Source of the DNA: a virus
Direction: 5' to 3' (one strand)
Length of the DNA stretch: 64,000 bases
Virus record (IMG/VR): IMGVR_UViG_3300023174_003073
Span: 96,001 to 160,000 of that record
Positions within the stretch are counted from its first letter, which is position 1. Every line of letters starts with the position of its first letter. The notes beneath the pieces are model-generated. The model had not been told where the DNA came from. It made no database searches and saw only the letters and a program-made list of their open reading frames with translations. Made by a program: the position numbers and the translations under genes. Below are positions 20,721 to 61,207 of this stretch, one piece after another.

Positions 20721-21227
20721 TTATTTTAAGAACTCGTCAATAGACAAGTCATAATGCAAACTATTTATACGGTGTATACCCAGCAAAAACAGAACATAGC
20801 TGGATACACTACTACCACGACCTACTCCCCAAACTACTTTGTTTGCTCTCATAGTGTCAACTAGGTATTTACAATAACGCAATAATTGGAACAAATCTCG
20901 TTGCTGATATAATATCAATTCTTGCCCAACTCTTTGCAATTCTGCATTAGTTTGACAAAGGTCTAGTACATATTTGGCTATATCTAATTGATTGTATTCT
21001 TCTGGTATAAACCAATTACGTTGTAGTTGTTTGTCAAACTCTTCCTTCGACAGAGTTTGTTGTTTGTATTTTTTGAATGTGGGTATATTTTCTATCTCTA
21101 AATCTTTATCAAAATAGATATCATCAGAGACTAATGCATTTTTGATTTTTATGTTTGGGTCAGATAAAAAGGCACTACATAAGTCCATTTCATCTAATAT
21201 TTGTTGACCGTATATATCAATTTGCAT
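20721..21227 (-). CDS. dnaE: DNA polymerase III alpha (DnaE)-like fragment, N-terminal palm part
   Basis: RVGQEL...WGVGRGSSVSSYVLFLLGIHRINSLHYDLSIDEFL matches DnaE GPGRGS..GSLVAY.L.IT..DP....LLFERFL. Confidence 0.8.
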   Translation of the reverse strand: MQIDIYGQQILDEMDLCSAFLSDPNIKIKNALVSDDIYFDKDLEIENIPTFKKYKQQTLSKEEFDKQLQRNWFIPEEYNQLDIAKYVLDLCQTNAELQRVGQELILYQQRDLFQLLRYCKYLVDTMRANKVVWGVGRGSSVSSYVLFLLGIHRINSLHYDLSIDEFLK

Positions 21228-21232
21228 ACGCT

Positions 21233-21261
21233 ATGATAACATAGTTTCTGCAAGAATACAA
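21233..21261 (-). promoter_or_regulatory. sigma70-type promoter TTGTAT-17-TATCAT (extended -10 TG), leaderless
   Basis: ATG 5 nt after the -10 box; no RBS. Confidence 0.6.
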
Positions 21262-21276
21262 TAGCTATTTGCCCGT

Positions 21277-21507
21277 TTAGGTTTTGTCGATTTGGATATT
21301 GTTTTGGATGTTTTGTTTCTTGTACAATTCATCCATTCTTTTGGCATATTCTTTGTTATAGCCCTCAAGCACCATACTGATTTGGTTAACTAAAAATTCT
21401 TTACCACTACGATGTGCAAAGGTTAGTTTACCGGTAAGGTCTTGTATAGATGCTTGTAATTCATCTATGGTCTTTTTTGATATATCAGGCATGAAAGGAT
21501 GTTCCAT
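21277..21507 (-). CDS. hypothetical coiled-coil protein
   Basis: ORF track. Confidence 0.65.
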   Translation of the reverse strand: MEHPFMPDISKKTIDELQASIQDLTGKLTFAHRSGKEFLVNQISMVLEGYNKEYAKRMDELYKKQNIQNNIQIDKT

Positions 21508-21509
21508 AA

Positions 21510-22322
21510 TTATACTCCGCCGTAAATTCCGTCACCAATCTTGCCCCAAATTGGTGTAGTACCATCATATGTACCAACACATATATAAACAAAACTACCA
21601 TCTGTACAAATTGCACCGGGTGCATCTCCTGGTGATCCCAATTCACCAGGATAACGTAATCCAATATAACTTGAAAGTCTACTTCTATTCAATGGGAATA
21701 TAGTTAATGTTGTTCCACAATTTACAGTAGTGATTTTAAACTGTAATTCTTTAACACCTGCAGCCGCAGTAATTTCATTTGTAAAACTTGCATTTACTCC
21801 AGGACCACCCGGGCTATAATAGTTTTCTAATAAAGACACTGTTGTATCCATACCACCTACTAATATTGCACTTGAATTATATTGACTTGATGGGAAATAT
21901 ATTTTATAACCCTCACTGTAATCAATATTCAAATTCAATTGTACGCTAGATTGTGTTCCAGTAGGTGCCCAACCTGCAAAACTGATTGTAGTGTCTCCGG
22001 TAATAGTACCATATTGAACGTCACCTTTACTTACATCAACAACTAACGTATCATTTATTTCTGCACCTAAATTGTAAGTTGCTGTTCTAAAACTTCTAAC
22101 GCTAGCATTACTAATTAATGCTCCTGCTAAATTATTATCTAAAGATGTTCCGGATAAAGGTGACTTTAAAAGTACTTTATTTTGTAAGTCAGTTAACTCT
22201 GTCTTGGTAGTATCCAAATTGTTTTTGATACTGGCAAAGTTGTCTCTGAATCCTTGGCTATTATTATTGACCCCGGGAACAGGATAATTTACATCAATTG
22301 CGCTTGTATTTAATGAACTCAT
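21510..22322 (-). CDS. virion structural protein (fibre/baseplate-associated)
   Basis: YPVPGVNNNSQGFRDNF plus coiled-coil N-terminus; G.PGD..G C-terminal motif; TATAAATA at 22341-22348. Confidence 0.6.
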   Translation of the reverse strand: MSSLNTSAIDVNYPVPGVNNNSQGFRDNFASIKNNLDTTKTELTDLQNKVLLKSPLSGTSLDNNLAGALISNASVRSFRTATYNLGAEINDTLVVDVSKGDVQYGTITGDTTISFAGWAPTGTQSSVQLNLNIDYSEGYKIYFPSSQYNSSAILVGGMDTTVSLLENYYSPGGPGVNASFTNEITAAAGVKELQFKITTVNCGTTLTIFPLNRSRLSSYIGLRYPGELGSPGDAPGAICTDGSFVYICVGTYDGTTPIWGKIGDGIYGGV

Positions 22323-22351
22323 AGTTTGTATTCCATATTGTATTTATAGTG

Positions 22352-24505
22352 TTAAGCATTGGGTAAAATTGTTTTTCTAGGGAATAAAACGACAACATCA
22401 TATTTATCCAAAGGATCCGGAACTGGAGTAGCACTAGGTAAATCAGTCCAAGCAGGAACTGATAGTTTAGTATTCCAATTATAAGTTGCACTCTTGTCTA
22501 CCATTAACCTATCTATAGTAAAATCAATTTCATTTAGTTTATGTGACCAATTATTATTAATTAGGTCTTTAATAACTGTTGCTTTACCTGGCTTAGTATA
22601 ACATATCACCCATGCTTGAACAAAACCTAATGTTTCACTATTTGTTTGCTGTGTTACCATCCACTTAGGTAACAATCTACTATCAAAATTTTGTGTCATA
22701 GCTGTAGTAATACTGGATCTCATATTCTGCAATCCTGCAGGATATAATATACGAACTGATCCTGGACTTTGACTGGTTTTAATTGATCCACTACTAATTG
22801 AATACTGTGTTGTGTTAGTAACAAACGACCCTTGACGTAGACTGATATTCTTATACCAGTGTAAATCATCTGCTAATTTATTACCATCAATACTTTCTAA
22901 GTCATCTATAATTTTACTATATACAACTTCATATAGAATATTGCCATTATCGTCGGTTGCTACAGCAGTGTCAATTGGACCCAATACAATTTTTCGTCTA
23001 TAATGATTTTTTTGTATAGCATCAATGTATTTCTCTAGTGTGCTTGATTCCATGCCATAAACATGAACAAAACTAACATCTTTTGCTTTTCCAAAATACA
23101 TATCATCTGCTCTGAATAGGTATTCATCTGGAATTAATGTCTTGTCCGTAAGTAGAGATTGAATTGTTCGCTTTCCTTTTAAATCAGGAAGTGCTTTTAG
23201 ATATATATTTTCAAGTGGGTTAGGGTAATATTGATTTACGTTAATCGTAAATGTTTTAAAACTATGAAGTAAAGGGTATTCAGGGGAAAAACTTTCAACA
23301 GTAAAAGTAAAAAGTGTATCAGCACCCTCAGGTAATGCTCTTAGTGTTCCGGGTTGTTCTGCTACTCGACCTGTTATTTCACCGTTACTTTGTAAAATTA
23401 AATTATTCGGTAGTGAGCCTGATGTTATTCTATAATTAAGTATATGTGCTGATGTTGCTTTAACCTGTAACATACTAATTGTACCATTCAATATGGTTCC
23501 TAAACTAGTATCAGTATCCCAAACAATATCTTCGTCTATTTCATTTTTAATAGTAAAAACAAATGTTTCTTTTTTAGAAACTAATGCAGGCTTTATTTTT
23601 TTAGCAACAGTAACAGAAATAGTATAACTAAAAACACCCTTTCTTTCCAATATTGGTTTTCCAGTAATCCACCCAGTTGTTTTATTCCCTACTAAACCTT
23701 TAGGCAAATCACCATACTGATATATGAAATCATTATTATCAAAATCTTCACCTAGGATTTTAAATGAAAAATATTCATTGGCTTTAATTGTAGGAAGTGT
23801 TCTGTTATTTAAAACATAATAATCATAGTAAGGATCGTCAGGAAGAATAGGTTCAGACTTTGGTTTTCTATTTAAAATTACAGGGATTCTTGTGTTTTGT
23901 AATCCACCTAATTCTTTGTTACGTACTTCAATTGAATACACAACAGTATCATTTCCTAATTCACTGGTTAATTGAACTGAGAATGTATATGTTTTTGTTG
24001 TAGGACTTCTGTCACCTAACACTGGTTTATCAGGATATCCCTTAATAAGACCGGTAGAATTTATATACAATCCCGGAGGTAAACTACCAGATGAAATTGA
24101 TGTGGTTACAACATTATCTGCGGAAGGATTAGAATATTTCAATTGATAAGAAACATACACACTATCAATTACATGTAGTATAGTTCCCGGTAATGTAGTT
24201 AGTTTAGGTTTATTTTCTGCACCTGAAATACTTATATTAAAGGATCTGTCTCGGATATTATTTAAATCGTCTGTTGCACGTATAGTGAAATTATATTCCT
24301 GAACAGTTGATGTATTTACTGGCGTACCAGAAATTGTTCCAAATCGACTTAAAGTGGTACCTACAGGTATCATACCACTTAGTAATTTATATTGGACTAA
24401 TGTTGCAGGAAACACCGCACCTGCACTTAACTGAACTACAAGAGGTAATCCTGTTGGGAAGGTACCTAAGTAACCTGAATTTGTAATCCAATTTGGTTGT
24501 GACAT
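22352..24505 (-). CDS. virion protein with putative Ig (He_PIG-like) repeats, baseplate-associated
   Basis: Repeated SGxLPxGLxxxxxGxIxGxP units. Confidence 0.7.
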   Translation of the reverse strand: MSQPNWITNSGYLGTFPTGLPLVVQLSAGAVFPATLVQYKLLSGMIPVGTTLSRFGTISGTPVNTSTVQEYNFTIRATDDLNNIRDRSFNISISGAENKPKLTTLPGTILHVIDSVYVSYQLKYSNPSADNVVTTSISSGSLPPGLYINSTGLIKGYPDKPVLGDRSPTTKTYTFSVQLTSELGNDTVVYSIEVRNKELGGLQNTRIPVILNRKPKSEPILPDDPYYDYYVLNNRTLPTIKANEYFSFKILGEDFDNNDFIYQYGDLPKGLVGNKTTGWITGKPILERKGVFSYTISVTVAKKIKPALVSKKETFVFTIKNEIDEDIVWDTDTSLGTILNGTISMLQVKATSAHILNYRITSGSLPNNLILQSNGEITGRVAEQPGTLRALPEGADTLFTFTVESFSPEYPLLHSFKTFTINVNQYYPNPLENIYLKALPDLKGKRTIQSLLTDKTLIPDEYLFRADDMYFGKAKDVSFVHVYGMESSTLEKYIDAIQKNHYRRKIVLGPIDTAVATDDNGNILYEVVYSKIIDDLESIDGNKLADDLHWYKNISLRQGSFVTNTTQYSISSGSIKTSQSPGSVRILYPAGLQNMRSSITTAMTQNFDSRLLPKWMVTQQTNSETLGFVQAWVICYTKPGKATVIKDLINNNWSHKLNEIDFTIDRLMVDKSATYNWNTKLSVPAWTDLPSATPVPDPLDKYDVVVLFPRKTILPNA

Positions 24506-24506
24506 A

Positions 24507-25130
24507 TTAATGTCCTTGCAATAAATCTAACGCAAGATGATAATGATGCTGTCTATCTTCCAATCCAATAGTTCCGCCGTTAATGCGTTTTGTTAGTGTA
24601 ACAAAATCATCATTGTCACAGTATTGATTTAAATTGTTATTGTCCCAGAACCAACCAGCAGAACTGACTGCACCTTCGGGTGTTTCTAAGTAAGCAACTG
24701 TTTCTTCAACACTAATACCTAAATCGGCTGCAAACTTAGTATAGTTGGCGCGACCGGTCAATTGAATTAAACCACGACCACAGAAACGATATCCGTCTCC
24801 ACTTGCCTCGTCACCGTTACTCATGCGATTTGCATAAACACGATTAGCAATCTTTTCAGGCTTACGTTCATATTGTCTTGCTAAGTCATCAGTGGGGAAA
24901 TACTTTTTAAAAGTACCCATCAATCCTTTAGCACTATAGTTTAGATTCTCTTTAACAAAATTAAAACCACCTGATTCATGTGCAGTCTGTGCAACGAATG
25001 CTGCCGCTCTACGCATGTTATCATACATGTCATAGTATTCTGCAACTTCATGCAAAGGTTGTGCATATACTTGTAGTACTGTTGCTTTTGTCTTTGGGCA
25101 TAATGCCTTTAATAATTCTAATGTTATCAT
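24507..25130 (-). CDS. glycoside hydrolase family 19 endolysin
   Basis: AQTAHESGG, ENLNYS, GRGLIQLTG and TKRINGG motifs. Start moved to MITLELL (AAGGA RBS). Confidence 0.9.
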   Translation of the reverse strand: MITLELLKALCPKTKATVLQVYAQPLHEVAEYYDMYDNMRRAAAFVAQTAHESGGFNFVKENLNYSAKGLMGTFKKYFPTDDLARQYERKPEKIANRVYANRMSNGDEASGDGYRFCGRGLIQLTGRANYTKFAADLGISVEETVAYLETPEGAVSSAGWFWDNNNLNQYCDNDDFVTLTKRINGGTIGLEDRQHHYHLALDLLQGH

Positions 25131-25141
25131 AATTTTTCCTT

Positions 25142-28100
25142 TTAAGCGTAAACTGCTGTTAGAGCATACCATTTAGTTAAACTACCTGCAACTAAATGTA
25201 TTCTTGCTCCTGGTCCTAATGGATAAGAAGCAATGCCTTCGACTGTTACTCCTGTACCTTGTGGCAGAATATTAATAGTCTGTGCTGAGTCATTAAACAC
25301 ATACAATTGTCTACCAATAGAAACTGTAGGTGTTAATACATTATACGGGGTTGCACCTACCGCTGTAATAATGTTAATTGTTTTATTCATAACCGGATTG
25401 TTAGAGGCTGCAGTTAGACCCTGATTTGAACTGAAGTTAACATGACTATCTGCGGCGTCAGTAACAACTAAACCACCTAATGTTGCTAAACCAGTACTAA
25501 TACCATTCGTAACTGTTAGGCTGTTTAGTGTACCTACACCAGTAATGTTAGTATATGACCCTGGGGCAATACCATAAGTTAATGATGAACTTGATACATT
25601 ACCAATAATATTTGCACCGTTGGCTGCTGTAATAAAGAAACCATTTGCAAGTATGTTACCTGCATTTAAGTTACCTGCTAATGAAAGAGCACCGTTTGTA
25701 GTAAATGTTGCATTACTTGCACCTGCGCCAACAACTAAACTAATCAAATTACCAACTTGTGTAATTGCTGTTTGTGAACTACCAGTGACAGTTGTTGCGC
25801 TGCCTGCAGTTGATGCTGTGTTGGCTGCACTTGCTAGTGCTACGTAACCTGTAACATTTCCACCAACTAAATTAGACAAGCCACTACCCACACCAGTAAA
25901 TGCGCTGGCAATTATATTACCTGTTGCTGTTAATCCACCACCAAATGTAGCTGAACCAGTACTTATTAAGAATGGTCTAATATTCAATGATGCAAGTGTT
26001 GTAACAATTGCTCCGGTGGGAGTTAATGTTGCAGTAAACGTAAATGTTCTTGCACCGGTTACTGTGATGACGAACCAATTTGGATTACCACCACCAACGT
26101 TTGGTGGGTTAGTTGTCGCTGTCGTACCAGTTAATGTAATCTCAGTGCCTGTTGTTGCATTATGATTTGTAGAAGTAGTTACAGTTATTAAATTACCAAC
26201 GTTAGTAATAGAAGTGATACCAATTAATGTACTAGGTAAACTTAAATTTCCTACGTTTGCTGTTCCGGTAACTGCTAATATACCACTAGCTACTAAGTTA
26301 GCTCCTGAGACATTTCCTGATACTGAAACTAATGTACCATTGATATCTCTAGTTGTGATGTTACCTATGCTTGCATTTCCAGTAACTGTCAATAATCCAT
26401 TGGTTACTAAGTTGCCACCTGATATATTACCAACAGCAGTCATTATACCACTAGATTTCAAAATACCTGCCTCAACATTGCCACTTAGGAACATATGTGG
26501 TGCAGAAAGATTACCAGCAAAACTAGATTGTGCAGTACCAGTGACTGTCAGTACACCACCAATGCTAGCCTCGCCAGTTGAAGTGATAGAACCCGGTGTA
26601 GTTAAGTTACCAAATCTTGCATTACCTGTTATGTTTGCATTTGCACCATTAAAGTCACTTGCTTGGAAAGTTGTTCCTGAAATCAATGAAGAAACAGATA
26701 AGTTTATTAGACCAGTTAAACTTCCTAAAATTTCAGCATTACCACCTACTCTTAATCGTCCGTCAAATATACCTGAACCTGCACTAGTAATTAAAGGTCT
26801 TACTGTAATCGTAATTGTTCCGCCTAATGTACCTGTTGGGGCAACTGCGGCTGTTACAGTGAATGTTGTTGGGTTACCACCTGAGTTAGGTGTAGCAGGT
26901 ACAGTTGTTACTAAGAATACCCCGTTTGGTGCATTTGTACCTGTAGTTGTAACTCCGGATATTACTACTTCAGTACCAACAGTTAAACCATGTGCTATAG
27001 TACTTGTAACAGTAATTGCAGTGCCTACATATGAAACAGATATTGTTCCTGACAATGTAGTTGCGGTTGGGAATCTTAAATTACCAACATTAGCTTGTCC
27101 TGACACTAATAATGCACCACCAACGTTAGCATTACCAGATGCTACTACGTGTGTCATACTTGCATTACCAACGATAGCATTACCTCTAACGTTTAAAATA
27201 CCTAACGTTTCTATATTACCGTGTGTACTATTACCTGATATGTTTGCAGTTGCTATGTTTGCAATACCGGTAATATTAGCATTAGCTGATTTAAGTAAAC
27301 CATTTAGTGTTGTAATATCACCAGTAGATGTAATATGCATTACATCAGCAATATTACCTATGTTCGCATTTGCAGTTACTCTAAACACACTACCAGAGAA
27401 GTTTGCATTACCTGTTGAATCGATATGTAATGATGTTAGCGTACCGGTAATATTTGAACTTAATGCTTTAATTAAACCTGTATTAGCATATAAACTGCCC
27501 GCAGTTTCTAACATAGCAACGTTTGCTATACCAGTAACATTAGCATTTTGTGAAACTAAATAACCAGAGGTAGCAGATACGTTACCTAATGCAACAACGC
27601 TAGACGTATTGACATTACCGGCGGATACATTTCCGGCAATACTTGCAGAACCAGCACTAGATAATATAGGTCTAATTGTAATAGAAGTACTTGCCCCTAC
27701 AGTAATTGGTGCTGAAGGTGCTACATTAACTATAAATTCGAATCTGTTTGCATCAACTATATTAGAAACAGTCCAAGTACCATTAGTTGTTGTACTTGCA
27801 TTTGTTACAACAATTGTTGCTCCAACTACTGTCATACCGTGAGGATCTACAGTAGTAACACGAATAGTCGTACCAACATACAATATTGATGTAATCTTAG
27901 ATGTACCGGTTAGTACAACTGTTGGTAAAGTCATATGCGATACATTAGCTGTACCAGCAACAGTCAATTGTCCAGGTGTTGATAAGTTACCACCAGTCAA
28001 TGTATTAGTTGCAACTAAGTTTGCAGCCTGAACATTTGCTTGAGATGTAATATTACCTGCTTGTGTTACTTCACCAAATTGTGCTTCTGCTGACACATTG

Positions 28101-30910
28101 AATAGTGATCCAGTGAATCTTGCATTACCTGAACTATTAACATGTAACAAAGTAGCAGTTCCAGTAATATTAGTATTGGCTGCTCTTAATAATCCACTGT
28201 TTGCATATAAATCACCAGAAGCAGTTAAGTGTGTAGTACTTGCATTACCAAATGTACCTGTACCAGTGACACTTAATGTTCCACCAAATACCCCCGAACC
28301 TGTACTTGTCATTAATGGTTTAATAGATAGTGTTGCGGCTCCTGAGCCAACACTACCTGTTGGTGTTGATGTTGCGGTAAATGTGAATGATGTTGTAGAA
28401 ACAATTGTTGCAACTATCCAAGTACCGTTAGGTGGATTAGTAGTTGCTGTCAATCCACTAATAGTAATCTGTGCACCTGCAACTGCCATACCATGGTCAT
28501 TAGACGTAGTTACTGTTACCGTTGTACCAATATATGTTACACTTGATACTGCTACTGTAGTTATGTTAGGTAATACAACATGTGAGAAGTTAGCAGTACC
28601 GTTAACACTTAATGCATTACCATACATTGCACTTGCAGATACATTACCACCAGTAACATTACCGGCAGTAATTGCAGTAATGTTAGCATTGGCTGCATTT
28701 ACCCAGCCACTTGTGGCGTTGATATTACCAGGTGTTCCTAAATTACCAAACTGTGCGTTACCTGTGATGTTTGCATTCTGTGCATTGACCCAGGCTGCTG
28801 TTGCATTAATATTACCAGTAGCAAAAATTTGTTGTGATACAGTGACATTCCCTTGTGATGTTAGTGTACCTACGTTTGCTATACCATCAATGCTTGCATT
28901 ACCTGTAGTTTTAAATGACCCTACATTAGCAAGACCTGAACTTACAAAACTACCACCGATTGTAATTGAAGTATTAGCACCGCCGTTAATATTACCTGTA
29001 GCTACAATAATACCTGTTGATAAGTTGCCTGCGCTTGCATTACCTACTACTGCTAGAATACCACCAGTAGTTATATTTGCACCATCTAGATTTCCTCTTG
29101 CAGACAAATCTAATGTTGTTAATTTTGTTGTTACGTTTACGTTAGCAGTTGTTACATTACCTGCATTGACAATAGTACCGTTGATGTTGGCGCCACCTTC
29201 TAATGCAGCCGAACCCACAACTCTGATAATACCGCTGGCAATAAGATTAGCACCACTGACGTTACCTGATACACTTACGACTGTACCATCTAATCTTGTT
29301 GTTGTAATATTACCTACGTTTGCGTTACCCTGAACACGTAAAATTCCATTGGTTACTAGATTTGCACCAGTAACATTACCAGTAACGTCTGCATCACCTC
29401 TACTAATTAAGGAAGCAACGTTTGCTGATGATGTAGCAAACATAATACCAGTTGACACTAAATTACCAGCAGAAAGATTTGCTGTAATTGACATTAAACC
29501 TGTTGTTCTATTATATGTAGCACCAGTATGTGCGTTAGCAATACCACCGTCATTGAATAATAGTTGTGTAGTAGTTCCAGGAACTCCGATGTTACCTGAG
29601 ATATTACCACTAACGTTTCCAGATACATTACCTGTCATAGTCCCAGATAAATTTCCACTGATGTTACCGGATACATTACCTGCAACATTTCCTGAGAAAT
29701 CCCCTGAGATATTGCCGCTGACATTACCAGAGACATTACCAGTTAAAGTACCAAGTACATTTCCTGACATTGTGCCTACAGTCATTGTAGTTGCACTAAA
29801 GAATCCTGCATTCATTCTGGCTGCATCAACATTACCAGTCAATGAAATATTTCCACCGGTCATGTTACCTTCAACTGCTAATCCATCTAATAAACCTACT
29901 TTTCTAATATTAGGTTGATTAGCAGATTGTACTGTACCAGTGATGAATGTTGCACTGATATTACCAATTGCGGCATTACCGTCAACGTTTAGTGTAACTA
30001 GATTACCTAAACTAGTAATGTTAGGTTGATTGTTGCTTGTAACTTGTAATGCACGATCGGCAGTTCCAGTTAAATTACCAGTAACATTACCCAATAAACT
30101 ACCAGTAACATTACCTTGAATAGCAGGTGATATCAATGTACCGGCAACTTGTAGACTTGTTAATGTACCAACAGATGTAATATTAGGTTGAGCATTGCCA
30201 CTTACTACACTTGCATTTGATGCAGGTCCAATGAATGTTCCATAATAATTTCTAGCATATACATCTTGTGTTACATTTACACTTTGATTGATGTTTATAT
30301 TTCCGTTAGTTACATTGAAATCACCAGTAAGATTTAGTGTCGTACCAGTATATACTAATCTAGATGCGGCTGCTAAGTTACCGCGATTATTAAATAATAC
30401 CTGAGTATTTGCACCGGGTGCAGAGAATGTACCTGATATAGTTCCACCAACCAAGTTACCAACAAAGTTGGCTGCTGTTACATTACCTGTTACACCTAAA
30501 GATACTAATGTACCAACACTAGTAATGTAAGGTTGTGAGGGAGTACGTAATGTACCATAAATATTAGTAGATGTTAAATTAGCTACTGTAATATTACCAG
30601 ACAAACCAATAACAAACGGAGTTTGACCGTTAGTAATTGTTGCTGAATTTCCAGTAGCGGCTCCGATACCCACTGCTAATCCAGATCCTGTTTGTATTGT
30701 TACACTTGGTATATTTGCAGTTATAACTACTGACCCAGTAGTTCTATTTTGTGCTAGTCCACTACCTGTGGTTAATGATACAACACCTGTTGTAAGTGTT
30801 GTTGAATATAAATCTGTAAAGTTATTCTGTACCTTGGCAAAGGCTGCTCGTATCGGGTCGGCAGCAGGGTCATTTGGGAATGCGCCGAAATCTATAATTT
30901 GTTGTGCCAT
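25142..30910 (-). CDS. 1922-aa long tail fibre-like protein
   Basis: gp9/gp10-like N-terminal anchor (PND..ADPIRAAFAKVQNNFTDLY), QPNITSVGTL repeats, GN(V/I)xG repeats and four TT..HG...NG.(W/F).V...FTF domains. Confidence 0.75.
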   Translation of the reverse strand: MAQQIIDFGAFPNDPAADPIRAAFAKVQNNFTDLYSTTLTTGVVSLTTGSGLAQNRTTGSVVITANIPSVTIQTGSGLAVGIGAATGNSATITNGQTPFVIGLSGNITVANLTSTNIYGTLRTPSQPYITSVGTLVSLGVTGNVTAANFVGNLVGGTISGTFSAPGANTQVLFNNRGNLAAASRLVYTGTTLNLTGDFNVTNGNININQSVNVTQDVYARNYYGTFIGPASNASVVSGNAQPNITSVGTLTSLQVAGTLISPAIQGNVTGSLLGNVTGNLTGTADRALQVTSNNQPNITSLGNLVTLNVDGNAAIGNISATFITGTVQSANQPNIRKVGLLDGLAVEGNMTGGNISLTGNVDAARMNAGFFSATTMTVGTMSGNVLGTLTGNVSGNVSGNISGDFSGNVAGNVSGNISGNLSGTMTGNVSGNVSGNISGNIGVPGTTTQLLFNDGGIANAHTGATYNRTTGLMSITANLSAGNLVSTGIMFATSSANVASLISRGDADVTGNVTGANLVTNGILRVQGNANVGNITTTRLDGTVVSVSGNVSGANLIASGIIRVVGSAALEGGANINGTIVNAGNVTTANVNVTTKLTTLDLSARGNLDGANITTGGILAVVGNASAGNLSTGIIVATGNINGGANTSITIGGSFVSSGLANVGSFKTTGNASIDGIANVGTLTSQGNVTVSQQIFATGNINATAAWVNAQNANITGNAQFGNLGTPGNINATSGWVNAANANITAITAGNVTGGNVSASAMYGNALSVNGTANFSHVVLPNITTVAVSSVTYIGTTVTVTTSNDHGMAVAGAQITISGLTATTNPPNGTWIVATIVSTTSFTFTATSTPTGSVGSGAATLSIKPLMTSTGSGVFGGTLSVTGTGTFGNASTTHLTASGDLYANSGLLRAANTNITGTATLLHVNSSGNARFTGSLFNVSAEAQFGEVTQAGNITSQANVQAANLVATNTLTGGNLSTPGQLTVAGTANVSHMTLPTVVLTGTSKITSILYVGTTIRVTTVDPHGMTVVGATIVVTNASTTTNGTWTVSNIVDANRFEFIVNVAPSAPITVGASTSITIRPILSSAGSASIAGNVSAGNVNTSSVVALGNVSATSGYLVSQNANVTGIANVAMLETAGSLYANTGLIKALSSNITGTLTSLHIDSTGNANFSGSVFRVTANANIGNIADVMHITSTGDITTLNGLLKSANANITGIANIATANISGNSTHGNIETLGILNVRGNAIVGNASMTHVVASGNANVGGALLVSGQANVGNLRFPTATTLSGTISVSYVGTAITVTSTIAHGLTVGTEVVISGVTTTGTNAPNGVFLVTTVPATPNSGGNPTTFTVTAAVAPTGTLGGTITITVRPLITSAGSGIFDGRLRVGGNAEILGSLTGLINLSVSSLISGTTFQASDFNGANANITGNARFGNLTTPGSITSTGEASIGGVLTVTGTAQSSFAGNLSAPHMFLSGNVEAGILKSSGIMTAVGNISGGNLVTNGLLTVTGNASIGNITTRDINGTLVSVSGNVSGANLVASGILAVTGTANVGNLSLPSTLIGITSITNVGNLITVTTSTNHNATTGTEITLTGTTATTNPPNVGGGNPNWFVITVTGARTFTFTATLTPTGAIVTTLASLNIRPFLISTGSATFGGGLTATGNIIASAFTGVGSGLSNLVGGNVTGYVALASAANTASTAGSATTVTGSSQTAITQVGNLISLVVGAGASNATFTTNGALSLAGNLNAGNILANGFFITAANGANIIGNVSSSSLTYGIAPGSYTNITGVGTLNSLTVTNGISTGLATLGGLVVTDAADSHVNFSSNQGLTAASNNPVMNKTINIITAVGATPYNVLTPTVSIGRQLYVFNDSAQTINILPQGTGVTVEGIASYPLGPGARIHLVAGSLTKWYALTAVYA
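29591..29741. repeat. degenerate 12-bp coding repeat (GN[VIL]S)n
   Basis: Protein reads GNVSGNVSGNISGDFSGNVAGNVSGNISGNLSGTMTGNVSGNVSGNISGN. Confidence 0.75.
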
Positions 30911-53348: not shown

Positions 53349-53358
53349 CTGTATTTGG

Positions 53359-53673
53359 TTACTTGACTTGTTTGTTAGCCATTTGTTGACGAATCTTTTC
53401 ATTTTCGTCAGGACCTTGTTCTTGTCCTTCTAAATCATTTTCTTGGCCTCTGAAAATAACTTTATCATCACTAACATCTGCAATGATATTTTTTAATGGT
53501 TCTTTTTCAACAATGTCAAACAAATCTCTTTTGTCTAATGAGATCCCGTTTTTATTCAACACAGTTAAGAATTCGTCAGCGGTCATAGGTTCAGTTTGTG
53601 TAGAAAGTTGGCTAGCTACTGCAACCAACTTTACACGCAAAGGATCTGCATCACTGAATTCAAATAAGCGCAT
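53359..53673 (-). CDS. hypothetical protein (MRLFE N-terminus)
   Basis: ORF track. Confidence 0.7.
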   Translation of the reverse strand: MRLFEFSDADPLRVKLVAVASQLSTQTEPMTADEFLTVLNKNGISLDKRDLFDIVEKEPLKNIIADVSDDKVIFRGQENDLEGQEQGPDENEKIRQQMANKQVK

Positions 53674-53675
53674 GT

Positions 53676-54410
53676 TTAACGCTTGGCTCTGCCTACTGCC
53701 GGAACAGGTTCTTCTGGTTCTTCTTCAGGCATCTCAGGAGCTGCCATTGCGTCAGCACCCATTTCTTCTCCACCCATGTCAGGAGCCATTTCATCGCCGC
53801 CTGCTATTGGATCTGCACCCATGCCATCATCCATACCAGCGCCCATCTCATCACCCATGCCAAAGCCACCATCTTGACCTGTCACAACGCCTAATGCGCC
53901 TTGTAGACCTGTCTTAGATTGTGTTAGTGCGGCTTGTAATGAAGTCAATGCCTCTGATACTTGGCTACTAAATTGTTCACCTTCACTTGTACCAAACTCG
54001 CTGTTAACACCGTCAACAACTGCTGGTAATTCTTTTACTAGCATATCACTAACTTGTTCAATCATCTTCTGCATTGAATCAACCATTTCTTGTGCGGCTA
54101 GAACAACTTGAGATTTTTCAACTTCTTCGTTCTCGACTACAATTCGTGGATTATACATTGGAAGTGATTTCAAATCACCATAGTGATGTGTTAATGCTTG
54201 TTCCATGAATACAAGTTTCAAGTAAGCAGGATTTTGCTCTCCGCTCATTGATTTTTGTTTAGCTTCTGACATCAATCCTTTGACTTTCTTAAGCATATTC
54301 TTGGTCTCATAAAGACCTAGCTTATCAACATTGAAGGATGTGTTGAAGTGTTCTTTCAGTGCTTGTTTAGCGACTGAAGTTGGTTTAGCGTTAAATTCGG
54401 TTAGTTTCAT
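53676..54410 (-). CDS. putative prohead core / scaffold-like protein (MKLTE N-terminus)
   Basis: Helical with an acidic G/M/D tail; GATAAATA at 54436-54443. Confidence 0.55.
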   Translation of the reverse strand: MKLTEFNAKPTSVAKQALKEHFNTSFNVDKLGLYETKNMLKKVKGLMSEAKQKSMSGEQNPAYLKLVFMEQALTHHYGDLKSLPMYNPRIVVENEEVEKSQVVLAAQEMVDSMQKMIEQVSDMLVKELPAVVDGVNSEFGTSEGEQFSSQVSEALTSLQAALTQSKTGLQGALGVVTGQDGGFGMGDEMGAGMDDGMGADPIAGGDEMAPDMGGEEMGADAMAAPEMPEEEPEEPVPAVGRAKR

Positions 54411-54453
54411 AGTTTTTCCTAGAGTACTGATAATATATTTATCATTGGTTTAA

Positions 54454-54945
54454 TTATTTTGCGGAGTTTAGTGCAAATTGTTTGTGCTGCCAAGCATTGG
54501 CTTTCTCTACAAACTTCTCTAATTCATCCAATAAATGCTGTTTCTTTAGCATATCTTCGTTCATTTTAGCAATGACGATAGTCTTAGTTTCCAAGTTTTT
54601 AATGGTTTTACTAAGTTTTTGACGAACTTTTAGGTTCTCAATTGTCCCGTATAATATGCTGTCCAAATAAAGTACACGGTTAGCATCAGTTACAGAATTT
54701 GTTTTATCTAATGTAATCCAAGTGACAGCGTTCTTTAATTCAGCAAATGTATAGGTAGTGTGAGTTTTATTCTTGCTCATTACATATCCCATATCATTCT
54801 TTTTTATAGAATATTCTCCATATAAATGATAAACACCAGCCGAATCCTGATAAACAATTTCTTTTTCTAATTTTGACAGTTTCTCTTTACTAAGCATTTT
54901 AGCTAAGATAGAGAATAATTTATCATTTTTATTACCCATGCTCAA
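54454..54945 (-). CDS. hypothetical protein
   Basis: ORF track. Confidence 0.65.
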   Translation of the reverse strand: MSMGNKNDKLFSILAKMLSKEKLSKLEKEIVYQDSAGVYHLYGEYSIKKNDMGYVMSKNKTHTTYTFAELKNAVTWITLDKTNSVTDANRVLYLDSILYGTIENLKVRQKLSKTIKNLETKTIVIAKMNEDMLKKQHLLDELEKFVEKANAWQHKQFALNSAK

Positions 54946-55390
54946 TTACCTCAAAATATATATTTCTTAATTCAGGACTAACATCTAAAAATGTCGGCAA
55001 CTTATTTAATTCTGTTCCAATATGTATCATTGGTACACCATCACAATCTGTAAATAAATGTCCCAATTCTTCAGTTCCATTATTAAATACACTTCCAAAC
55101 ATCACAGTAAAATCAAACGTCCAGACCGGACAAGGTGTTTCTGATTCTAATAAAAATCCAAATTTTTCCGTATCAGTTAATGATATTTCATCTTTATGTG
55201 GATCAGTAATATCTTCAGGTAAACTACGTAATGAAATTACTTGGATAATTGTATCAAAATTGCATTGCGTATTTCTTTGCTTTTCCCACAGTGATATCTT
55301 TTCATCTACTGGAACAGGTGTATTTCTTCTATTTGTAATGCCTGTTTTTGTAATATCAAACAGGGTATAGCATCTTATTTTTAACGACAT
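54932..55390 (-). CDS. hypothetical late protein
   Basis: ORF track; TATAAATA at 55395-55402, 4 nt before the ATG. Confidence 0.7.
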   Translation of the reverse strand: MSLKIRCYTLFDITKTGITNRRNTPVPVDEKISLWEKQRNTQCNFDTIIQVISLRSLPEDITDPHKDEISLTDTEKFGFLLESETPCPVWTFDFTVMFGSVFNNGTEELGHLFTDCDGVPMIHIGTELNKLPTFLDVSPELRNIYFEVIEHG

Positions 55391-55407
55391 ACACTATTTA
55401 TAGAGGT

Positions 55408-55435
55408 AAAAAAGCCCGCAATAAAAGCGGGCTTT
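55408..55435 (-). terminator. Rho-independent terminator
   Basis: AAAGCCCGC-TTTTATT-GCGGGCTTT followed by a T run. Confidence 0.85.
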
Positions 55436-55449
55436 ATGAGTCTATATTA

Positions 55450-56223
55450 TTACGGTACTATAGGTGAAGCTGTTCCGCGATTATATGCTAATCTAGCCTG
55501 TTGATCCATTGATAACGGATCATGTGCAGTTGAAGAACCTACTGTTTCTTTTGAACCATTAAATGAATATGCTTGAGTATTTGCTTGTCCAATAGTTGCC
55601 ATTACTTTAGCAACTTTGTCATAACTCTTACTCGCAACCGCTTGTTGTAACTCTTTCTGATATGCCCCGTCATTCCACTTATTTGTCACTAAATATCCGT
55701 CCACAAATCCACCAAGGTCAAACGGTTTACCATGTGTTTGTGCAATCATTTCATTATGTTTTATTTGATTAATAAACTTCTTACTAAAGATTTGTATTGC
55801 TCTGCGTTGCACCATTGATTGTGCTGGGTTTTTAAACCAGCTATATTTTGCGGCTGTAGGACCTGTTTGTGTCTGTGATGCAGTCGTTGGGGTAGTTTGT
55901 GTTGGGGTTGTTTGTGTTGGGGTAGTTTGTGCCTGTGATGAAGTTGATGGAGTGGTTTGTGTTGGAGTTGTTTGTGCTTGTGTAGAGGCAGTATAAGGGG
56001 ACGGTGGAATAACTCTTCCGGGCACCTGATATGAACCGTTACCTGCAGCCATGGTAGTTGTTGCATTGCTAGCAGACTGCATGTTTGTAGGCGCTGTTGG
56101 AGCTGAAGTTGTAGGGGCTAGATTGGACCTTTGAGCGTTAGCATTGCGTCTTTTAGCGTTCATACTAGCTTGTTTACGGCGGCTAGCATTACCCTCATCT
56201 AATATAAATTCACTCGCTCTCAT
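55450..56223 (-). CDS. putative internal head protein with a T/Q/P-rich tract
   Basis: MRASEFILDE N-terminus; (QTTPT)n repeats. Confidence 0.6.
   Translation of the reverse strand: MRASEFILDEGNASRRKQASMNAKRRNANAQRSNLAPTTSAPTAPTNMQSASNATTTMAAGNGSYQVPGRVIPPSPYTASTQAQTTPTQTTPSTSSQAQTTPTQTTPTQTTPTTASQTQTGPTAAKYSWFKNPAQSMVQRRAIQIFSKKFINQIKHNEMIAQTHGKPFDLGGFVDGYLVTNKWNDGAYQKELQQAVASKSYDKVAKVMATIGQANTQAYSFNGSKETVGSSTAHDPLSMDQQARLAYNRGTASPIVP
55886..55975. repeat. 15-bp tandem coding repeat gttggggt(a/t)gtttgt
   Basis: Three copies at 55886-55930 plus degenerate copies. Confidence 0.8.
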
Positions 56224-56461
56224 TATCTTTTTTCCTCAAACTTTTTGAGAATCTACCTTGGTCACGTGCTTTAATTGCACTTAGCAATTTTCTCTCTAAA
56301 ATTTGAGCCTTTTCACCGTCATAATGCTTATTAATCATTTCTAATAAATTAATTGCACTGGTAATAATATTGTGGGCACGGCTTTCAATAATATGTGACG
56401 TATCACGATTATTGCCAATTGCTTCTAATTCTTCTAAAAGACTGCGAGTTTTTCGTTGCAT
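56210..56461 (-). CDS. hypothetical protein
   Basis: ORF track; GATAAATA at 56483-56490. Confidence 0.7.
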   Translation of the reverse strand: MQRKTRSLLEELEAIGNNRDTSHIIESRAHNIITSAINLLEMINKHYDGEKAQILERKLLSAIKARDQGRFSKSLRKKDNESE

Positions 56462-56488
56462 TTTTGGTATAGATCCTAATAGTATTTA

Positions 56489-57901
56489 TCAATTTTTGAG
56501 ATTGTTAAGTAGTGCTTTTAATTTGCTACCCTGCACGTCTGCAACTACCCGTTTAGTTTCTTCAGGAATATAGATATTTTCCCCAACCACAGTTGACTGG
56601 GGCTTTAATTGATTCATAATCTCGTTAGGACTAGGGGCAGGACGATACTTCATTTGCTGATCTCCATGACCCTCAGGATCCTCGTCTGTAATTCTCATGG
56701 TTTCTACGTTATATTCCAAGTCAATTTTTTGACCTACACCAGTCGAACTACGACTTTTCATACACTGAATCTGATACTTACCGCGTTCACGCATACTACG
56801 ACTTGTAAAGATACCAAATACGTTATCTGCTGTATTAATCTTACTGATACCACCTGCAATATGACTATGGTCAAACTCAATTTCTTCAACTGCACTACGA
56901 TTCAACTGACTTGCAGTAACCATTAATACACCTAATTCTTTGGATAGGTTACGCAATTCTTCTGACACATACTTGTCTTTAATAAACTGGTCGTTAGGAT
57001 TTACTTTAACAGACACGGGCATTACTAGATCCAGATAGTCAATCATCACAAAGTCAACTTTGATACCTGTTTGTATCTGTACTTCTTTCAAGTAACTACG
57101 AATATCGTTAACATTGCTTTGTGCGGGCAATCCTTTAACACGATAGTCACCTGATTTCTTACCTGCTAATTTAACTTTAAGTTCAGTATTATCAATATCT
57201 TTACGAATGTCTCTGGTACTCATCATAGTCAACATCGCATCAGTTCTAAGTGAAGTCAATTCTTCTGAGAGTTCCAATGAGATATAAACGCCACTCAATC
57301 CCATACCTAACCAATTCAGTGCAATGTTCATCATCACCAATGATTTACCTGAACCTGAACCACCTGCAAAGATATTCAATTCACCTCGACTAAAGCCACC
57401 ATACAACAACCTATCAAGTTGCGGCCAGCCTGTGCTTTGTTGTCCACCTGCATTAAAGTATTTGTGCAATCGTCCTTTAGGGTCAGCAAAGTAATCTGTA
57501 CCCATATCTCGTTGTAAACTAATCTGCACTGCTTCTTTGATTAGTTTCTCGACGGGACCAAAGTCACCCTTCTCTAACAAATCGGCTGCTTTGAGGATTG
57601 CTCGTTCTAATTCTTGTCTTTTAGTAAATGATTCAAATTCTTCTAAGAACCATTCAGTATGTTTATCACCGAAATCTTCAACCATATCAAGTTGAACACC
57701 TGTGGTCGCTACAATTTGTTTACTATCGGGTAGTAAACTATACTTCTCACTATATTCTATCATAAACTCTGCAACAGGTCTTAAAGACTTGTCAAAGTTC
57801 TGAGCATTCATAATATTCATTACCCTTGTATACAATTCTGCATTTGTCAGAATCATTTGTAAAAAGAGTTTTTGAATCTCTACGTTATATTCCTTTTGCA
57901 A
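56489..57901 (-). CDS. gp41: DnaB-like replicative helicase (T4 gp41-like)
   Basis: GGSGSGKS, ISLEL, IDYLDL, TASQLNR and MKSR motifs; TTG start. Confidence 0.92.
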   Translation of the reverse strand: MQKEYNVEIQKLFLQMILTNAELYTRVMNIMNAQNFDKSLRPVAEFMIEYSEKYSLLPDSKQIVATTGVQLDMVEDFGDKHTEWFLEEFESFTKRQELERAILKAADLLEKGDFGPVEKLIKEAVQISLQRDMGTDYFADPKGRLHKYFNAGGQQSTGWPQLDRLLYGGFSRGELNIFAGGSGSGKSLVMMNIALNWLGMGLSGVYISLELSEELTSLRTDAMLTMMSTRDIRKDIDNTELKVKLAGKKSGDYRVKGLPAQSNVNDIRSYLKEVQIQTGIKVDFVMIDYLDLVMPVSVKVNPNDQFIKDKYVSEELRNLSKELGVLMVTASQLNRSAVEEIEFDHSHIAGGISKINTADNVFGIFTSRSMRERGKYQIQCMKSRSSTGVGQKIDLEYNVETMRITDEDPEGHGDQQMKYRPAPSPNEIMNQLKPQSTVVGENIYIPEETKRVVADVQGSKLKALLNNLKN

Positions 57902-57902
57902 T

Positions 57903-58403
57903 TCAATTTCCTTTGTTTATTGATGTGTCATATTGACCATCAATCAAAATATATAACATACGACATACATTTGATGACCTATTAGCCCATGCATGGTTAG
58001 TACCTCGTTGTATTACAACTGCCCCTTTTTGTAAATCAACTTCTGAATCATCTAATACTAATGTAATCTCTCCTTCCATCACGATACTATAATCAATTGA
58101 TTCAGTGACATGCATTAAGGGATGTGGTTTTAAAAATCTAAATTCTGTAGTCTCAGGTGGAATATCAGCAAATCTAATTCTTGTACCATTTTTTGGAGGT
58201 TCAAATTTTAATGGGCTGTTTGTAGGATCAATCCTATTATCAATTATTGCTGGCATTTCTGTAGTATTCCATACTTCGTGTAATACAAGACCTGGAATAA
58301 TATCTAAATCAAAAACATTAGGCAAAGTTCCATTTGAAGTTATTATTGATTTACCCTCATTGTTGTGACCTGTAACCACACGATGAATCTTGGGATAAGT
58401 CAT
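57903..58403 (-). CDS. cupin-2 domain protein
   Basis: RVVTGH, MHVTESIDY..V..GE and VVIQRGTNHAWANRS. Confidence 0.85.
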   Translation of the reverse strand: MTYPKIHRVVTGHNNEGKSIITSNGTLPNVFDLDIIPGLVLHEVWNTTEMPAIIDNRIDPTNSPLKFEPPKNGTRIRFADIPPETTEFRFLKPHPLMHVTESIDYSIVMEGEITLVLDDSEVDLQKGAVVIQRGTNHAWANRSSNVCRMLYILIDGQYDTSINKGN

Positions 58404-59377
58404 TCTATGGCCTTTAATAATTTACGCTTTTGCATTTCTATTTTAATTTTACTCATTGTAGCATTTTCTAATATACTTAGTAAAGTAGGCAATCTACCAT
58501 ATTTTACCACTGCATCATTCACATCTTTAACTGAGCTATCCCAATCAGGTAAACTAACACTATACCCAAACTCTAATGCTTTGTCACATATCTCCAGACC
58601 AGTCGCATCACGATCGGGTACAACGATTATTTTCTTATTCAATTGTGCTAGCAATTGTGCTTGTTCTGTTGATATTGTATTATGTGTTAAAGCACAACCA
58701 TGAATGCTCAATGCATCAAAAATACCTTCAACTACGATACATGCTTGCCATTCTGGTTTCTGAAAATCATATCCAAATACATATCCTGCTTCTTGGTCAT
58801 TGATATACTTAGGAATTCTGTTATCTAAAAATCTGCTCGTATGACCTACAGTTTTTCCCTTATATGTATAGGGGATAACAATTCGATTTGATTGTCTGCC
58901 CTTATCATTGGGTGTGACTACAAAGGGTAATATTGTTTTATCAATCTTTCTGTTTTGTAGATATTGTAAGAATACACTATGATTAGGATTATTGCTATCT
59001 AACAATTCACCGTCAGGTAATTCTCTTGCTTTAAACGAAATTGTTTCACGAACCTTTTTGGTATATGTAAAATCTAAAAAGTCTTTGTTGCGTAAACTTT
59101 CAAGACTCCAAAGTTGAATCTGTTCTATGTCAACACCACACCACAATAAGAATTGTTTTGCTCTTTCAGAAATAACTCTTCCCAAAGTAAAACTGCAACT
59201 ATAGCTACAGTTAAAGCAATGGTATACCCAGTTAGTTTGTCCATCAAACTTAATACCACCTCTGAATCTATCATCAGGCCTATGCCCACGATGGGAACAA
59301 CAAATTGCGTTGAAACTAGTCCAACCACCACTTGTTTGTTTCTTACGACCGGGTATTATTGAGAGTATATCAAACAT
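58400..59377 (-). CDS. gp61: DNA primase (Zn finger + Toprim; T4 gp61-like)
   Basis: CC.H...YHCFNC; VEGIFDA; PDRDATG; KDVNDA. Confidence 0.88.
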   Translation of the reverse strand: MFDILSIIPGRKKQTSGGWTSFNAICCSHRGHRPDDRFRGGIKFDGQTNWVYHCFNCSYSCSFTLGRVISERAKQFLLWCGVDIEQIQLWSLESLRNKDFLDFTYTKKVRETISFKARELPDGELLDSNNPNHSVFLQYLQNRKIDKTILPFVVTPNDKGRQSNRIVIPYTYKGKTVGHTSRFLDNRIPKYINDQEAGYVFGYDFQKPEWQACIVVEGIFDALSIHGCALTHNTISTEQAQLLAQLNKKIIVVPDRDATGLEICDKALEFGYSVSLPDWDSSVKDVNDAVVKYGRLPTLLSILENATMSKIKIEMQKRKLLKAIE

Positions 59378-59378
59378 C

Positions 59379-59413
59379 TGTGTTAGTATAACACAATGTC
59401 ATTCATATTACAA
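59379..59413 (-). promoter_or_regulatory. sigma70-type promoter TTGTAA-17-TATACT, leaderless, with a palindrome over the -10 box
   Basis: -35 at 59408-59413, -10 at 59385-59390, ATG 7 nt downstream; TGTGTTA-N3-TAACACA. Confidence 0.65.
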
Positions 59414-59426
59414 GAATGATGGTTAC

Positions 59427-60179
59427 TTATCTTACTAAAATCTGGTTAATTGTTCCGCCCGAACTATAGAACTCTACACGCAAACGAGGGAAATACCCTT
59501 CCACATTGATATAGTCAGTGCTTGTATAACCAGAATAAGATACTTCATCGCTGATGTAAAACCATTCAGTATCGTTACCGGATACAGATCCTTGTATTCG
59601 CAGTGTACCCATATAATCAGTAAGTTGTGTTTGGAACGTAAAGAATGATACATCATTTGGTGTGTAAGGTGAGCTATAGAATGTTACCGGAGCTTGTTCA
59701 GTTGGTGTAGTATGTACAGGTATATCCAATTGCTCAGAGGGTAGATACTTTGGTAATACACTATTAACTATGTCAATAACACCTCTGCCACCTGCACTAT
59801 CATCCACAAATACTGGATACTCAAATGTACTTTCCGGAATAGTCAACGAATAATAACACAATGTTGCATCCATTTCTAATGTTTCACTGGAAAGTACCTG
59901 TAATGTTGCAATCCCAGTCAAAGGATATAATAGTGTTAATGCTTTCTGTAGTATAACTTCTGATCCATCATAACTCATTAATCTGCAATTAATTGTCTTT
60001 CCTGTGATATCAACGGGTTTTTGGTCTTGATTTAAAAACTGAAATTGCAGTTGATTGTCAATTCCTTTGTGGATTTTTAGATTTTTAGCATACACGGTTT
60101 GATATCTCCTAGGTGAGGATCCTGAATACAATACTACAGTTTGTCGGGGGATATAATAGTTTACTGAGGTAGAATACAA
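59427..60179 (-). CDS. virion structural protein (BppU N-terminal-like)
   Basis: KGIDNQLQFQFLNQDQKPVDITG pattern; late box at 60198-60205. Confidence 0.55.
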   Translation of the reverse strand: MYSTSVNYYIPRQTVVLYSGSSPRRYQTVYAKNLKIHKGIDNQLQFQFLNQDQKPVDITGKTINCRLMSYDGSEVILQKALTLLYPLTGIATLQVLSSETLEMDATLCYYSLTIPESTFEYPVFVDDSAGGRGVIDIVNSVLPKYLPSEQLDIPVHTTPTEQAPVTFYSSPYTPNDVSFFTFQTQLTDYMGTLRIQGSVSGNDTEWFYISDEVSYSGYTSTDYINVEGYFPRLRVEFYSSGGTINQILVR

Positions 60180-60262
60180 AATATTGGTCCTTTACTATAT
60201 TTATTAAATTTAAATACATTGGGCAACCAAATATGATAAATAAATCCGAGAACACTAAAATA

Positions 60263-60643
60263 ATGATTCAAAACGAATTCTTCAACAAACTAACTAAAAA
60301 TCACCCCTTCATAACCATTTGTTCCTACGCAGGACAAGATTACGTTGGAATAGTACAAAATCGTGATGAAATAGTCACAACTATCTATGATTACGGGGCG
60401 ATAGTTGATAACATTCTTAGGGAAAAGTTCTTAGAATTAGGTGATACATGGTGGTGGGAAAGTAATCGATTAGTACCCATCAATATGTTCTTAAAAGAAG
60501 AATGGATCATGTTCAAACCCTATCTTAGAACATTCAATAACAAAAGTCTCACTGTAGTTCATGGCCCGATATGCAGTATATTAGAACTGGCCAAAAGAAA
60601 ATCAAAAAGAAAATCAATTACTCTCGTTAAGAGAATGTCCTAA
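60263..60643 (+). CDS. hypothetical protein
   Basis: ORF track; start likely MIQNE (60263); WWWESNR motif. Confidence 0.65.
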   Translation: MIQNEFFNKLTKNHPFITICSYAGQDYVGIVQNRDEIVTTIYDYGAIVDNILREKFLELGDTWWWESNRLVPINMFLKEEWIMFKPYLRTFNNKSLTVVHGPICSILELAKRKSKRKSITLVKRMS

Positions 60644-61207
60644 TTCTTCTAATAAGTTCATATGAACAACTACCAAGTGTGCGTAGGCAATAGCATGACT
60701 TTTCTTAAAGCTATACCCATCAATATTCTTCTCCCACACTGTCTCCGCAACTTCTTTCCAAGATAATCCAATTAAATGCTTTTTAGCAGGTCGAATGATT
60801 GCTAGCATCATAGCAAGTCTCGGTATGCTATTGATAGGTTCTAACATCTTTTGCATACTATAATAATGATTGCTCAAGTGAATTAATTGTTCCACGAATG
60901 TTTTGTCATTTAGTTTATCCCAATTAGGTTCACGCATCAATTCAATTAGATGCTGTTCGTCACGTACTTTATCATATACATGAACATTCAAAAAGTCTAG
61001 TTTGAGATACCCTCGTTGGTCTGCTTCACTATAGTCTATATTAGCCATGTCAAGTAATGCATCGTATGGAACTTCTGTTACATAGATACCTGTTGCATGT
61101 TTACGAATAGGGTTTGCTCTACGCATTGCCGCAGGAACATGAGATATATATTGTAAAATATTATCTCTGTTCCCGAAGTCAATATCAATATCAGACTGAA
61201 ACTTCAT
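60614..61207 (-). CDS. dnaE: DNA polymerase III alpha (DnaE)-like fragment, catalytic part
   Basis: SDIDIDF, KHATG, GYLKLDFL, LAIIRP and YSFKKSHAIAYA match DnaE PDxDxDF, HAGG, KxDFLG, ALxRPG and YxFNKSHxxAY. Confidence 0.85.
   Translation of the reverse strand: MKFQSDIDIDFGNRDNILQYISHVPAAMRRANPIRKHATGIYVTEVPYDALLDMANIDYSEADQRGYLKLDFLNVHVYDKVRDEQHLIELMREPNWDKLNDKTFVEQLIHLSNHYYSMQKMLEPINSIPRLAMMLAIIRPAKKHLIGLSWKEVAETVWEKNIDGYSFKKSHAIAYAHLVVVHMNLLEELGHSLNESN

Follow-up and report, generated by a model that had tools for sequence, protein, structure and literature searches.

Two distant genes as the probable halves of a minimal DNA polymerase III alpha in an uncultured, presumably jumbo phage

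Two minus-strand genes of an uncultured virus, separated by 39,386 bp, most likely constitute a case of the minimal split DNA polymerase III alpha (Pol III alpha) known from group 2.2 (Rak2/PA5oct/Atu_ph07-like) jumbo phages, with each gene coding for one subunit of a heterodimer that would act as an accessory polymerase. The stretch of DNA analysed here (64,000 nucleotides; hereafter, the window) comprises bases 96001-160000 of the 170,986-bp IMG/VR virus record IMGVR_UViG_3300023174_003073. With respect to the size of the genome from which it derives, the record (171 kb) has an estimated completeness of 43%, and the closest contigs with the same genes measure 329-364 kb. A megablast search with 12 kb of the window against cultured phages gave no match. 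The two genes, referred to as the N half and the C half, are the following.

20721-21227, minus strand: N half, an intact open reading frame (ORF) of 168 amino acid residues (aa), with the C-terminal sequence ...GVGRGSSVSSYVLFLLGIHRINSLHYDLSIDEFLK-stop (EFLK-stop)
60614-61207, minus strand: C half, an intact ORF of 197 aa, with the N-terminal sequence MKFQSDIDIDF

Read along the coding strand, the C half comes first, and the two proteins amount to 365 aa in total.

Homology and predicted folds of the two proteins

The N half passes the Pfam profile DNA_pol3_alpha (PF07733) with 34.4 bits (cut-off, 23.9), its residues 98-167 covering profile positions 25-94, and matches phrog_11127 (3e-41; PHROG label, "DNA polymerase"). 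In a profile of 58 N halves, residues 97-167 align to residues 322-392 of Escherichia coli alpha, with GRGS 136-139 placed on 361-364; the nucleotide-binding part of the Pol III alpha palm, with its GxGRGS motif, therefore sits on the N half. The segment GVGRGSS (G134-S140) and residues S143, H152, and F166 are invariant in the 58 sequences, and the site of E. coli R390 is occupied by E165, a Glu that is nearly invariant. The C half has no Pfam match, matches phrog_11778 (1e-54; PHROG label, "DNA polymerase"), and, as a profile of 90 homologues (30-55% identical to the C half of the window), matches E. coli Pol III alpha (PDB ID: 2hnh) with E=3.3e-5 in three collinear pieces. In this alignment, D6/D8/D10 correspond to E. 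coli D401/D403/D405, K69/D71 to K553/D555, R139-P140 to R639-P640, and K168/H171 to K758/H760, the motifs following each other in the order DIDIDF, HxxG, KxD, RP, and KKSH. Since D6, D8, and D71 align to D401, D403, and D555, all three catalytic carboxylates of Pol III alpha are located on the C half. Residues D6, D8, D10, K69, D71, and P140 are invariant in the 90 C halves, and H37, G40, R139, K142, K168, and H171 are conserved in at least 90% of them. Searches of the PDB sequences with each half as a single sequence returned nothing meaningful; profiles were needed for both halves to reach homology at the PDB level.

The AlphaFold2 models showed a predicted local distance difference test score (pLDDT) of 95.9 for the C half and 89.5 for the N half. 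Using VIA-align, the entire C half (residues 1-197) was superposed on Taq Pol III alpha (3e0d, residues 459-868; Z-score, 9.3; root-mean-square deviation, 3.9; 192 residues aligned), Mycobacterium tuberculosis DnaE1 (5lew; Z-score, 9.2), and the E. coli enzyme (2hnh, residues 399-781; Z-score, 8.3), the next unrelated chain reaching a Z-score of only 3.4. Residues 66-168 of the N half were superposed on M. tuberculosis DnaE1 (5lew, residues 305-413; Z-score, 12.3; root-mean-square deviation, 2.2; 97 residues aligned) and on E. coli residues 278-393 (Z-score, 10-11). All 12 listed matches of the N half are C-family polymerases, and so is every match of either half with a Z-score of at least 6. 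Plain Foldseek with the C-half model gave weak E-values (7e-3), yet its top 9 matches were all Pol III alpha.

At the junction, the superpositions place the end of the N half at the equivalent of E. coli residue 393 and the start of the C half, 5 residues before DIDID, at 398. Because the chains abut at this point with no unassigned residues, there is no room for an intein. The N-half stop codon falls 0-2 codons after EF[LI][KR] in 80 of 80 loci, and a split-intein arrangement was rejected on the grounds that the N half stops right after EFLK in all of these loci and that no junction residues are left over.

The alignments reach only E. coli residues ~278-393 and 398-781, with large deletions within these limits. 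The thumb (E. coli ~417-538) is reduced to ~34 aa in the C half, where DxD and HxxG are spaced by 27 aa, the finger segment 641-739 is reduced to ~10 aa, and the chain ends near E. coli residue 781. PHP, DNA_pol3_finger, and HHH_6 gave no match at E up to 10 in the genome of the window (43% complete) or in complete PA5oct. Two environmental relatives that are 100% complete (359.6 and 329.3 kb) likewise have no PHP or finger match, and PF07733 matches only once in each. An additional small domain, composed of three short strands and a helix, is formed by residues 1-65 of the N half; it gave no structural match, is predicted to pack on residues 43-51 of the C half, and may stand in for missing parts of Pol III.

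Most of the above had been claimed by a sequence-only reading of the window. It described two DnaE-like genes 39 kb apart, the first ending at the GxGRGS block and the second carrying the next motifs in order, which is what the positions of the two intact ORFs and the profile alignments to E. coli alpha have now established. Its estimates of about 365 aa in total and of about 25 aa between DxD and HxxG in a reduced thumb were close to the values found. The loss of the ERFLNPER arginines was recovered as the replacement of R390 by E165, the lack of intein ends as the abutting chains, and the absence of the PHP, OB, and clamp-binding domains as the missing profile matches and the limited reach of the alignments. 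The comparison that it proposed of each half with Pol III alpha yielded profile and fold matches for both.

Several observations weigh against an accessory polymerase composed of these two proteins. E. coli R390 is replaced by the nearly invariant E165. The surfaces with which Pol III alpha holds duplex DNA are mostly absent (thumb, fingers 641-739, HhH/clamp-binding domain, and OB), so that templated DNA synthesis is not assured. The two genes, being 39 kb apart, are not co-transcribed, and 1:1 assembly therefore needs separate control. The incompleteness of the genome record (~43% complete) is a further limitation. Alone, the pair would hardly work as a processive replicase, given that it lacks the thumb, most of the fingers, and the clamp-binding and OB domains and has Glu at the site of R390. 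Instead of a templated DNA polymerase, the heterodimer could be a Pol-beta-fold nucleotidyltransferase of another kind, such as a terminal transferase, a short primer-extending/hand-off enzyme operating with the primase, or a maker of nucleotide signals or modified nucleotides. Such an enzyme would agree with the thumb of ~34 aa, the ~10 aa left of fingers 641-739, the lack of the clamp-binding, HhH, and OB domains, and the Glu in place of R390, as well as with the complete family B polymerase already there and the constant company of primase-helicase genes at the C half (both described below). The finger motifs RP and KKSH, however, are specific to the C family and nearly invariant, and fit a Pol III-like nucleotide-binding site better. 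A nucleotidyltransferase of this other kind is regarded as unlikely, and an accessory polymerase of the split Pol III alpha type remains the favoured assignment.

Assembly, natural fusions, and selection

Complex prediction with the N half and the C half gave an ipSAE of 0.90, against 0.21 for the best control; in the benchmark, 58 of 80 solved complexes and 2 of 110 mismatched pairs attained the ipSAE mark. Three runs agreed in at least 95% of the contacts, with a partner pLDDT of at least 90. The predicted contacts connect N-half residues 129-142 (GRGS loop) with C-half residues 1-12 (DxD strand) and 168-171 (KKSH). It is possible that this pass reflects the likeness of the pair to solved structures of Pol III alpha, in which case the prediction would have no independent weight. 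Altogether, the two genes almost certainly assemble into one enzyme. In the heterodimer, which is predicted to be tight, the Pol-beta-like palm would receive its GxGRGS triphosphate-binding loop and supporting helices from the N subunit, and the C subunit would contribute the D6/D8 strand, the third carboxylate D71 along with K69, and the finger motifs RP and KKSH. The palm motifs are divided between the two chains, and the complete set would therefore be formed only in the heterodimer.

Among the records of cultured jumbo phages, 96 have a C half and 89 have an N half, always as separate genes 30-180 kb apart; the carriers include PA5oct, RaK2, GAP32, 121Q-like coliphages, Atu_ph07 (in which the gap reaches 180 kb), Phosso, SCTP-2, and XaC1. 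Each of five large IMG/VR contigs that had been selected by the presence of an N half contains exactly one C half, which in three of the five is located 37-42 kb upstream on the same strand, as in the window; the distance between the halves in five related contigs is 37-128 kb. None of 80 N-half loci has a C half within 3 kb, and none of 80 C-half loci has an N half within 4 kb.

An exhaustive search of representatives identified natural fused forms. A protein of 375 aa (P0280) matches the C half with residues 190-370 and the N half with residues 34-180 (37% identity), with a short linker between the EFIK and DFDID motifs. Together with two further fused clusters (P0391 and P0392), there are three such clusters (375-376 aa) on four contigs from four samples. 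The fused genes (contigs L010-L013) occupy the C-half type of locus, and are preceded by a DNA methylase gene in two of the contigs. In the tree of C halves, the fused forms constitute one clade (support of 100 in the Shimodaira-Hasegawa-like approximate likelihood-ratio test, SH-aLRT), the nearest neighbours of which are the split forms P0393 and P0397 (SH-aLRT of the group of five, 97). Under midpoint rooting of this tree, the root of which is not established, the fused clade is placed deep inside. From this position, the fusion looks secondary.

The separation of the genes by 39 kb (up to 180 kb in Atu_ph07) and the different gene neighbourhoods of the two halves could also be taken to mean that the halves act apart, each with another partner and with no joint enzyme formed. 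We consider this very improbable, as the GS loop and the catalytic Asp residues are on different chains, and as the strict co-occurrence, the natural fusions, and a complex prediction that passes its controls all speak for a common enzyme.

When the genes are compared with those of close relatives (93% and 89% amino acid identity), the ratio of nonsynonymous to synonymous substitution rates (dN/dS) amounts to 0.07 in the N half and 0.08 in the C half, with a dS of ~0.7. Both genes are under strong purifying selection, and the pseudogene reading is excluded. In a metagenomic protein database, the N half is represented by at least 7377 clusters at 90% identity, and the C half by at least 7945. 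Next to no weight can be given to the view that the two genes are decaying, functionless pseudogene fragments left from a captured bacterial dnaE, for which it could be said that both halves cover only about a third of DnaE and that the C half fails Pfam, but which conflicts with the low dN/dS, the invariant catalytic residues, the start and stop exactly kept in 80 of 80 loci, the thousands of intact homologues, and the confident AlphaFold2 models.

The central claim of the sequence-only reading, namely a two-chain, miniaturised C-family enzyme, is upheld by folds that match Pol III alpha, by invariant catalytic residues, and by the complex prediction; its description of the enzyme as non-replicative is still an inference. 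Its suggestion to model the pair led to the ipSAE values given above, and that to examine co-occurrence and split-point conservation led to the counts of five of five large contigs and 80 of 80 loci. The findings that it had named as damaging did not appear: dN/dS is far from 1, and no further Pol III fragments turned up in the PHP and finger searches of the complete relatives. The T4-type replisome that it had noticed alongside the two genes is present as a family B polymerase, a primase, a DnaB-type helicase, and a clamp loader.

Replisome and gene neighbourhoods

An intact family B polymerase (DNA_pol_B) of 926 aa is encoded in the same genome at ~89-92 kb of the record, about 4-6 kb before the start of the window. 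The other replisome genes and the neighbours of the two halves in the window are the following.

18722-19645: AAA+ clamp loader
19977-20345, minus strand: GroES-like / head-morphogenesis protein (phrog_931, phrog_3188)
56489-57901: DnaB-type helicase
57903-58403, minus strand: cupin-domain gene (166 aa), between the primase and the helicase
58400-59377: primase
60233-60643, plus strand: convergent ORF of 136 aa (phrog_11637, 2e-30), overlapping the 3' end of the C half by 30 nucleotides
61191-61985, minus strand: epimerase/reductase-like gene of a sugar-nucleotide cassette
61982-62470, minus strand: cytidylyltransferase-like gene of the same cassette
62454-63377, minus strand: 4,6-dehydratase gene of the same cassette
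63374-63937, minus strand: Rv2179c-like DEDD 3'-5' exonuclease (PF16473, 109.8 bits)

In this setting, the pair would be an accessory nucleotide polymerase for DNA replication or repair beside the family B polymerase, and may act with the primase-helicase and clamp-loader genes that adjoin the two halves. Downstream of the C half are the convergent 136-aa ORF, a protein of ~250 aa, the primase (53 of 61 loci), and the helicase (51 of 61 loci), and the same gene order around the C half is found in PA5oct, RaK2, Atu_ph07, and a Vibrio phage. Past the N half come a 122-aa protein and the GroES-like protein, both in 62 of 62 loci, and then the clamp loader, in 61 of 62; the GroES-like gene is invariably the second gene after the N half and directly precedes the clamp-loader genes. 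Of 78 related loci, 77 have the convergent 136-aa ORF past the end of the C half and on the other strand, and it occurs also in PA5oct, RaK2, Atu_ph07, a Vibrio phage, and beside the fused genes. Neither Pfam nor the ESM Atlas provided a lead for it, and it is a candidate for a partner or regulator of the split enzyme.

On the upstream side, 42 of 70 related environmental loci have the Rv2179c-like exonuclease ahead of the C half, and in 24 the two genes abut. As a general proofreading partner the exonuclease was rejected, since PA5oct, RaK2, Atu_ph07, and a Vibrio phage lack it at this site. The exonuclease of the window is separated from the C half by three sugar-nucleotide genes, and in a close relative (L102; C half 89% identical) it overlaps the C half directly. 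The cassette (61191-63377), in which stops and starts overlap, appears as an insertion separating the exonuclease from the C half. A functional coupling of the C half to the sugar-nucleotide genes was also rejected, the epimerase-like gene adjoining the C half in only one of 80 related loci. For the 166-aa cupin-domain gene, none of 80 related C-half loci has a counterpart, which suggests a local insertion. No enrichment of the T4 late-promoter motif TATAAATA was seen in the window (5 occurrences against 9.5 expected), and the motif precedes neither half. With regard to PA5oct, matches to family B polymerase are distributed over two open frames (825 and 379 aa) located ~2.5 kb apart (NC_071039.1, 217618-221395), so that the family B polymerase of this phage may itself be split or interrupted; the omics paper on PA5oct has nothing on the two Pol III alpha genes.

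Relation to known polymerases

The minimal split Pol III alpha of group 2.2 jumbo phages was described from sequence by Iyer, Anantharaman, Krishnan, Burroughs, and Aravind (Iyer et al. 2021, Viruses 13:63; PMC7824862). According to the passages of that paper dealing with the split enzyme, it occurs beside a family B polymerase, a role in the synthesis of one strand or in repair is suggested, and the minimal split form is proposed as a model of the ancestral enzyme (PMC7824862). The system outlined in these passages agrees with that of the window in consisting of an N-terminal NTP-binding protein and a C-terminal Mg- and template-binding protein encoded by distant genes, in being without the other Pol III domains, and in being accompanied by a family B polymerase and a T4-like replisome (PMC7824862). 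The proteins of the window are 35-46% identical to those of PA5oct, RaK2, GAP32, Atu_ph07, Phosso, and SCTP-2. Nothing essential differs from the published system, and the window represents an uncultured member of it that is less than 50% identical to any cultured phage. The same passages make no mention of fused 375-aa forms, the exact split point, or neighbourhood counts (PMC7824862), and no experimental work on the split Pol III alpha later than Iyer et al. 2021 was found in the literature. The arrangement itself is already published, and for this window nothing is new in kind; what is new here are the fused forms with their nested position in the tree, the strictness of the split point, the estimate of selection, the neighbourhood counts, and the complex prediction.

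With bacterial Pol III alpha (DnaE and PolC; 2hnh, 3e0d, and 5lew), the pair shares the Pol-beta-like palm, the residues equivalent to D401/D403/D555 and K553, the GRGS loop, the RP and KSH finger motifs, and a fold similarity with Z-scores of 8-12. In contrast to the bacterial enzyme, it consists of two chains instead of one and of 365 aa instead of ~1160, is without the PHP, beta-clamp-binding/HhH, OB, and tau-binding domains, has a thumb of ~34 aa with most of the fingers gone and Glu in place of R390, and carries the extra 65-aa N-terminal domain in the N half. In cyanobacteria (e.g., Synechocystis and Nostoc), dnaE is also split, and full-length DnaE is restored by protein trans-splicing via a split intein. 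The window resembles these systems in deriving a C-family polymerase from two distant genes. The cyanobacterial gene, however, is split at a different site and its products are trans-spliced, whereas the product of the window must stay a heterodimer.

It is conceivable, though rather doubtful, that the pair is a distinct two-subunit, thumb-less C-family nucleotidyltransferase, assembled only when both genes are expressed and performing a specialised job beyond the family B polymerase with the adjoining primase-helicase and clamp-loader modules. Such a job might be the extension of primase products before hand-off, or the copying or repair of modified phage DNA, and the convergent 136-aa ORF could then be a third component or regulator. 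For experiments on the accessory polymerase favoured here, the natural fused form of 375 aa is a convenient single-chain construct. Environmental jumbo phages contain thousands of sequence clusters of the minimal split Pol III alpha, which makes it a very abundant family, and no smaller version of the bacterial replicative polymerase core is known. What a Pol III core of 365 residues in two chains is capable of would bear on the origin of C-family polymerases, and on why these phages keep a second polymerase.

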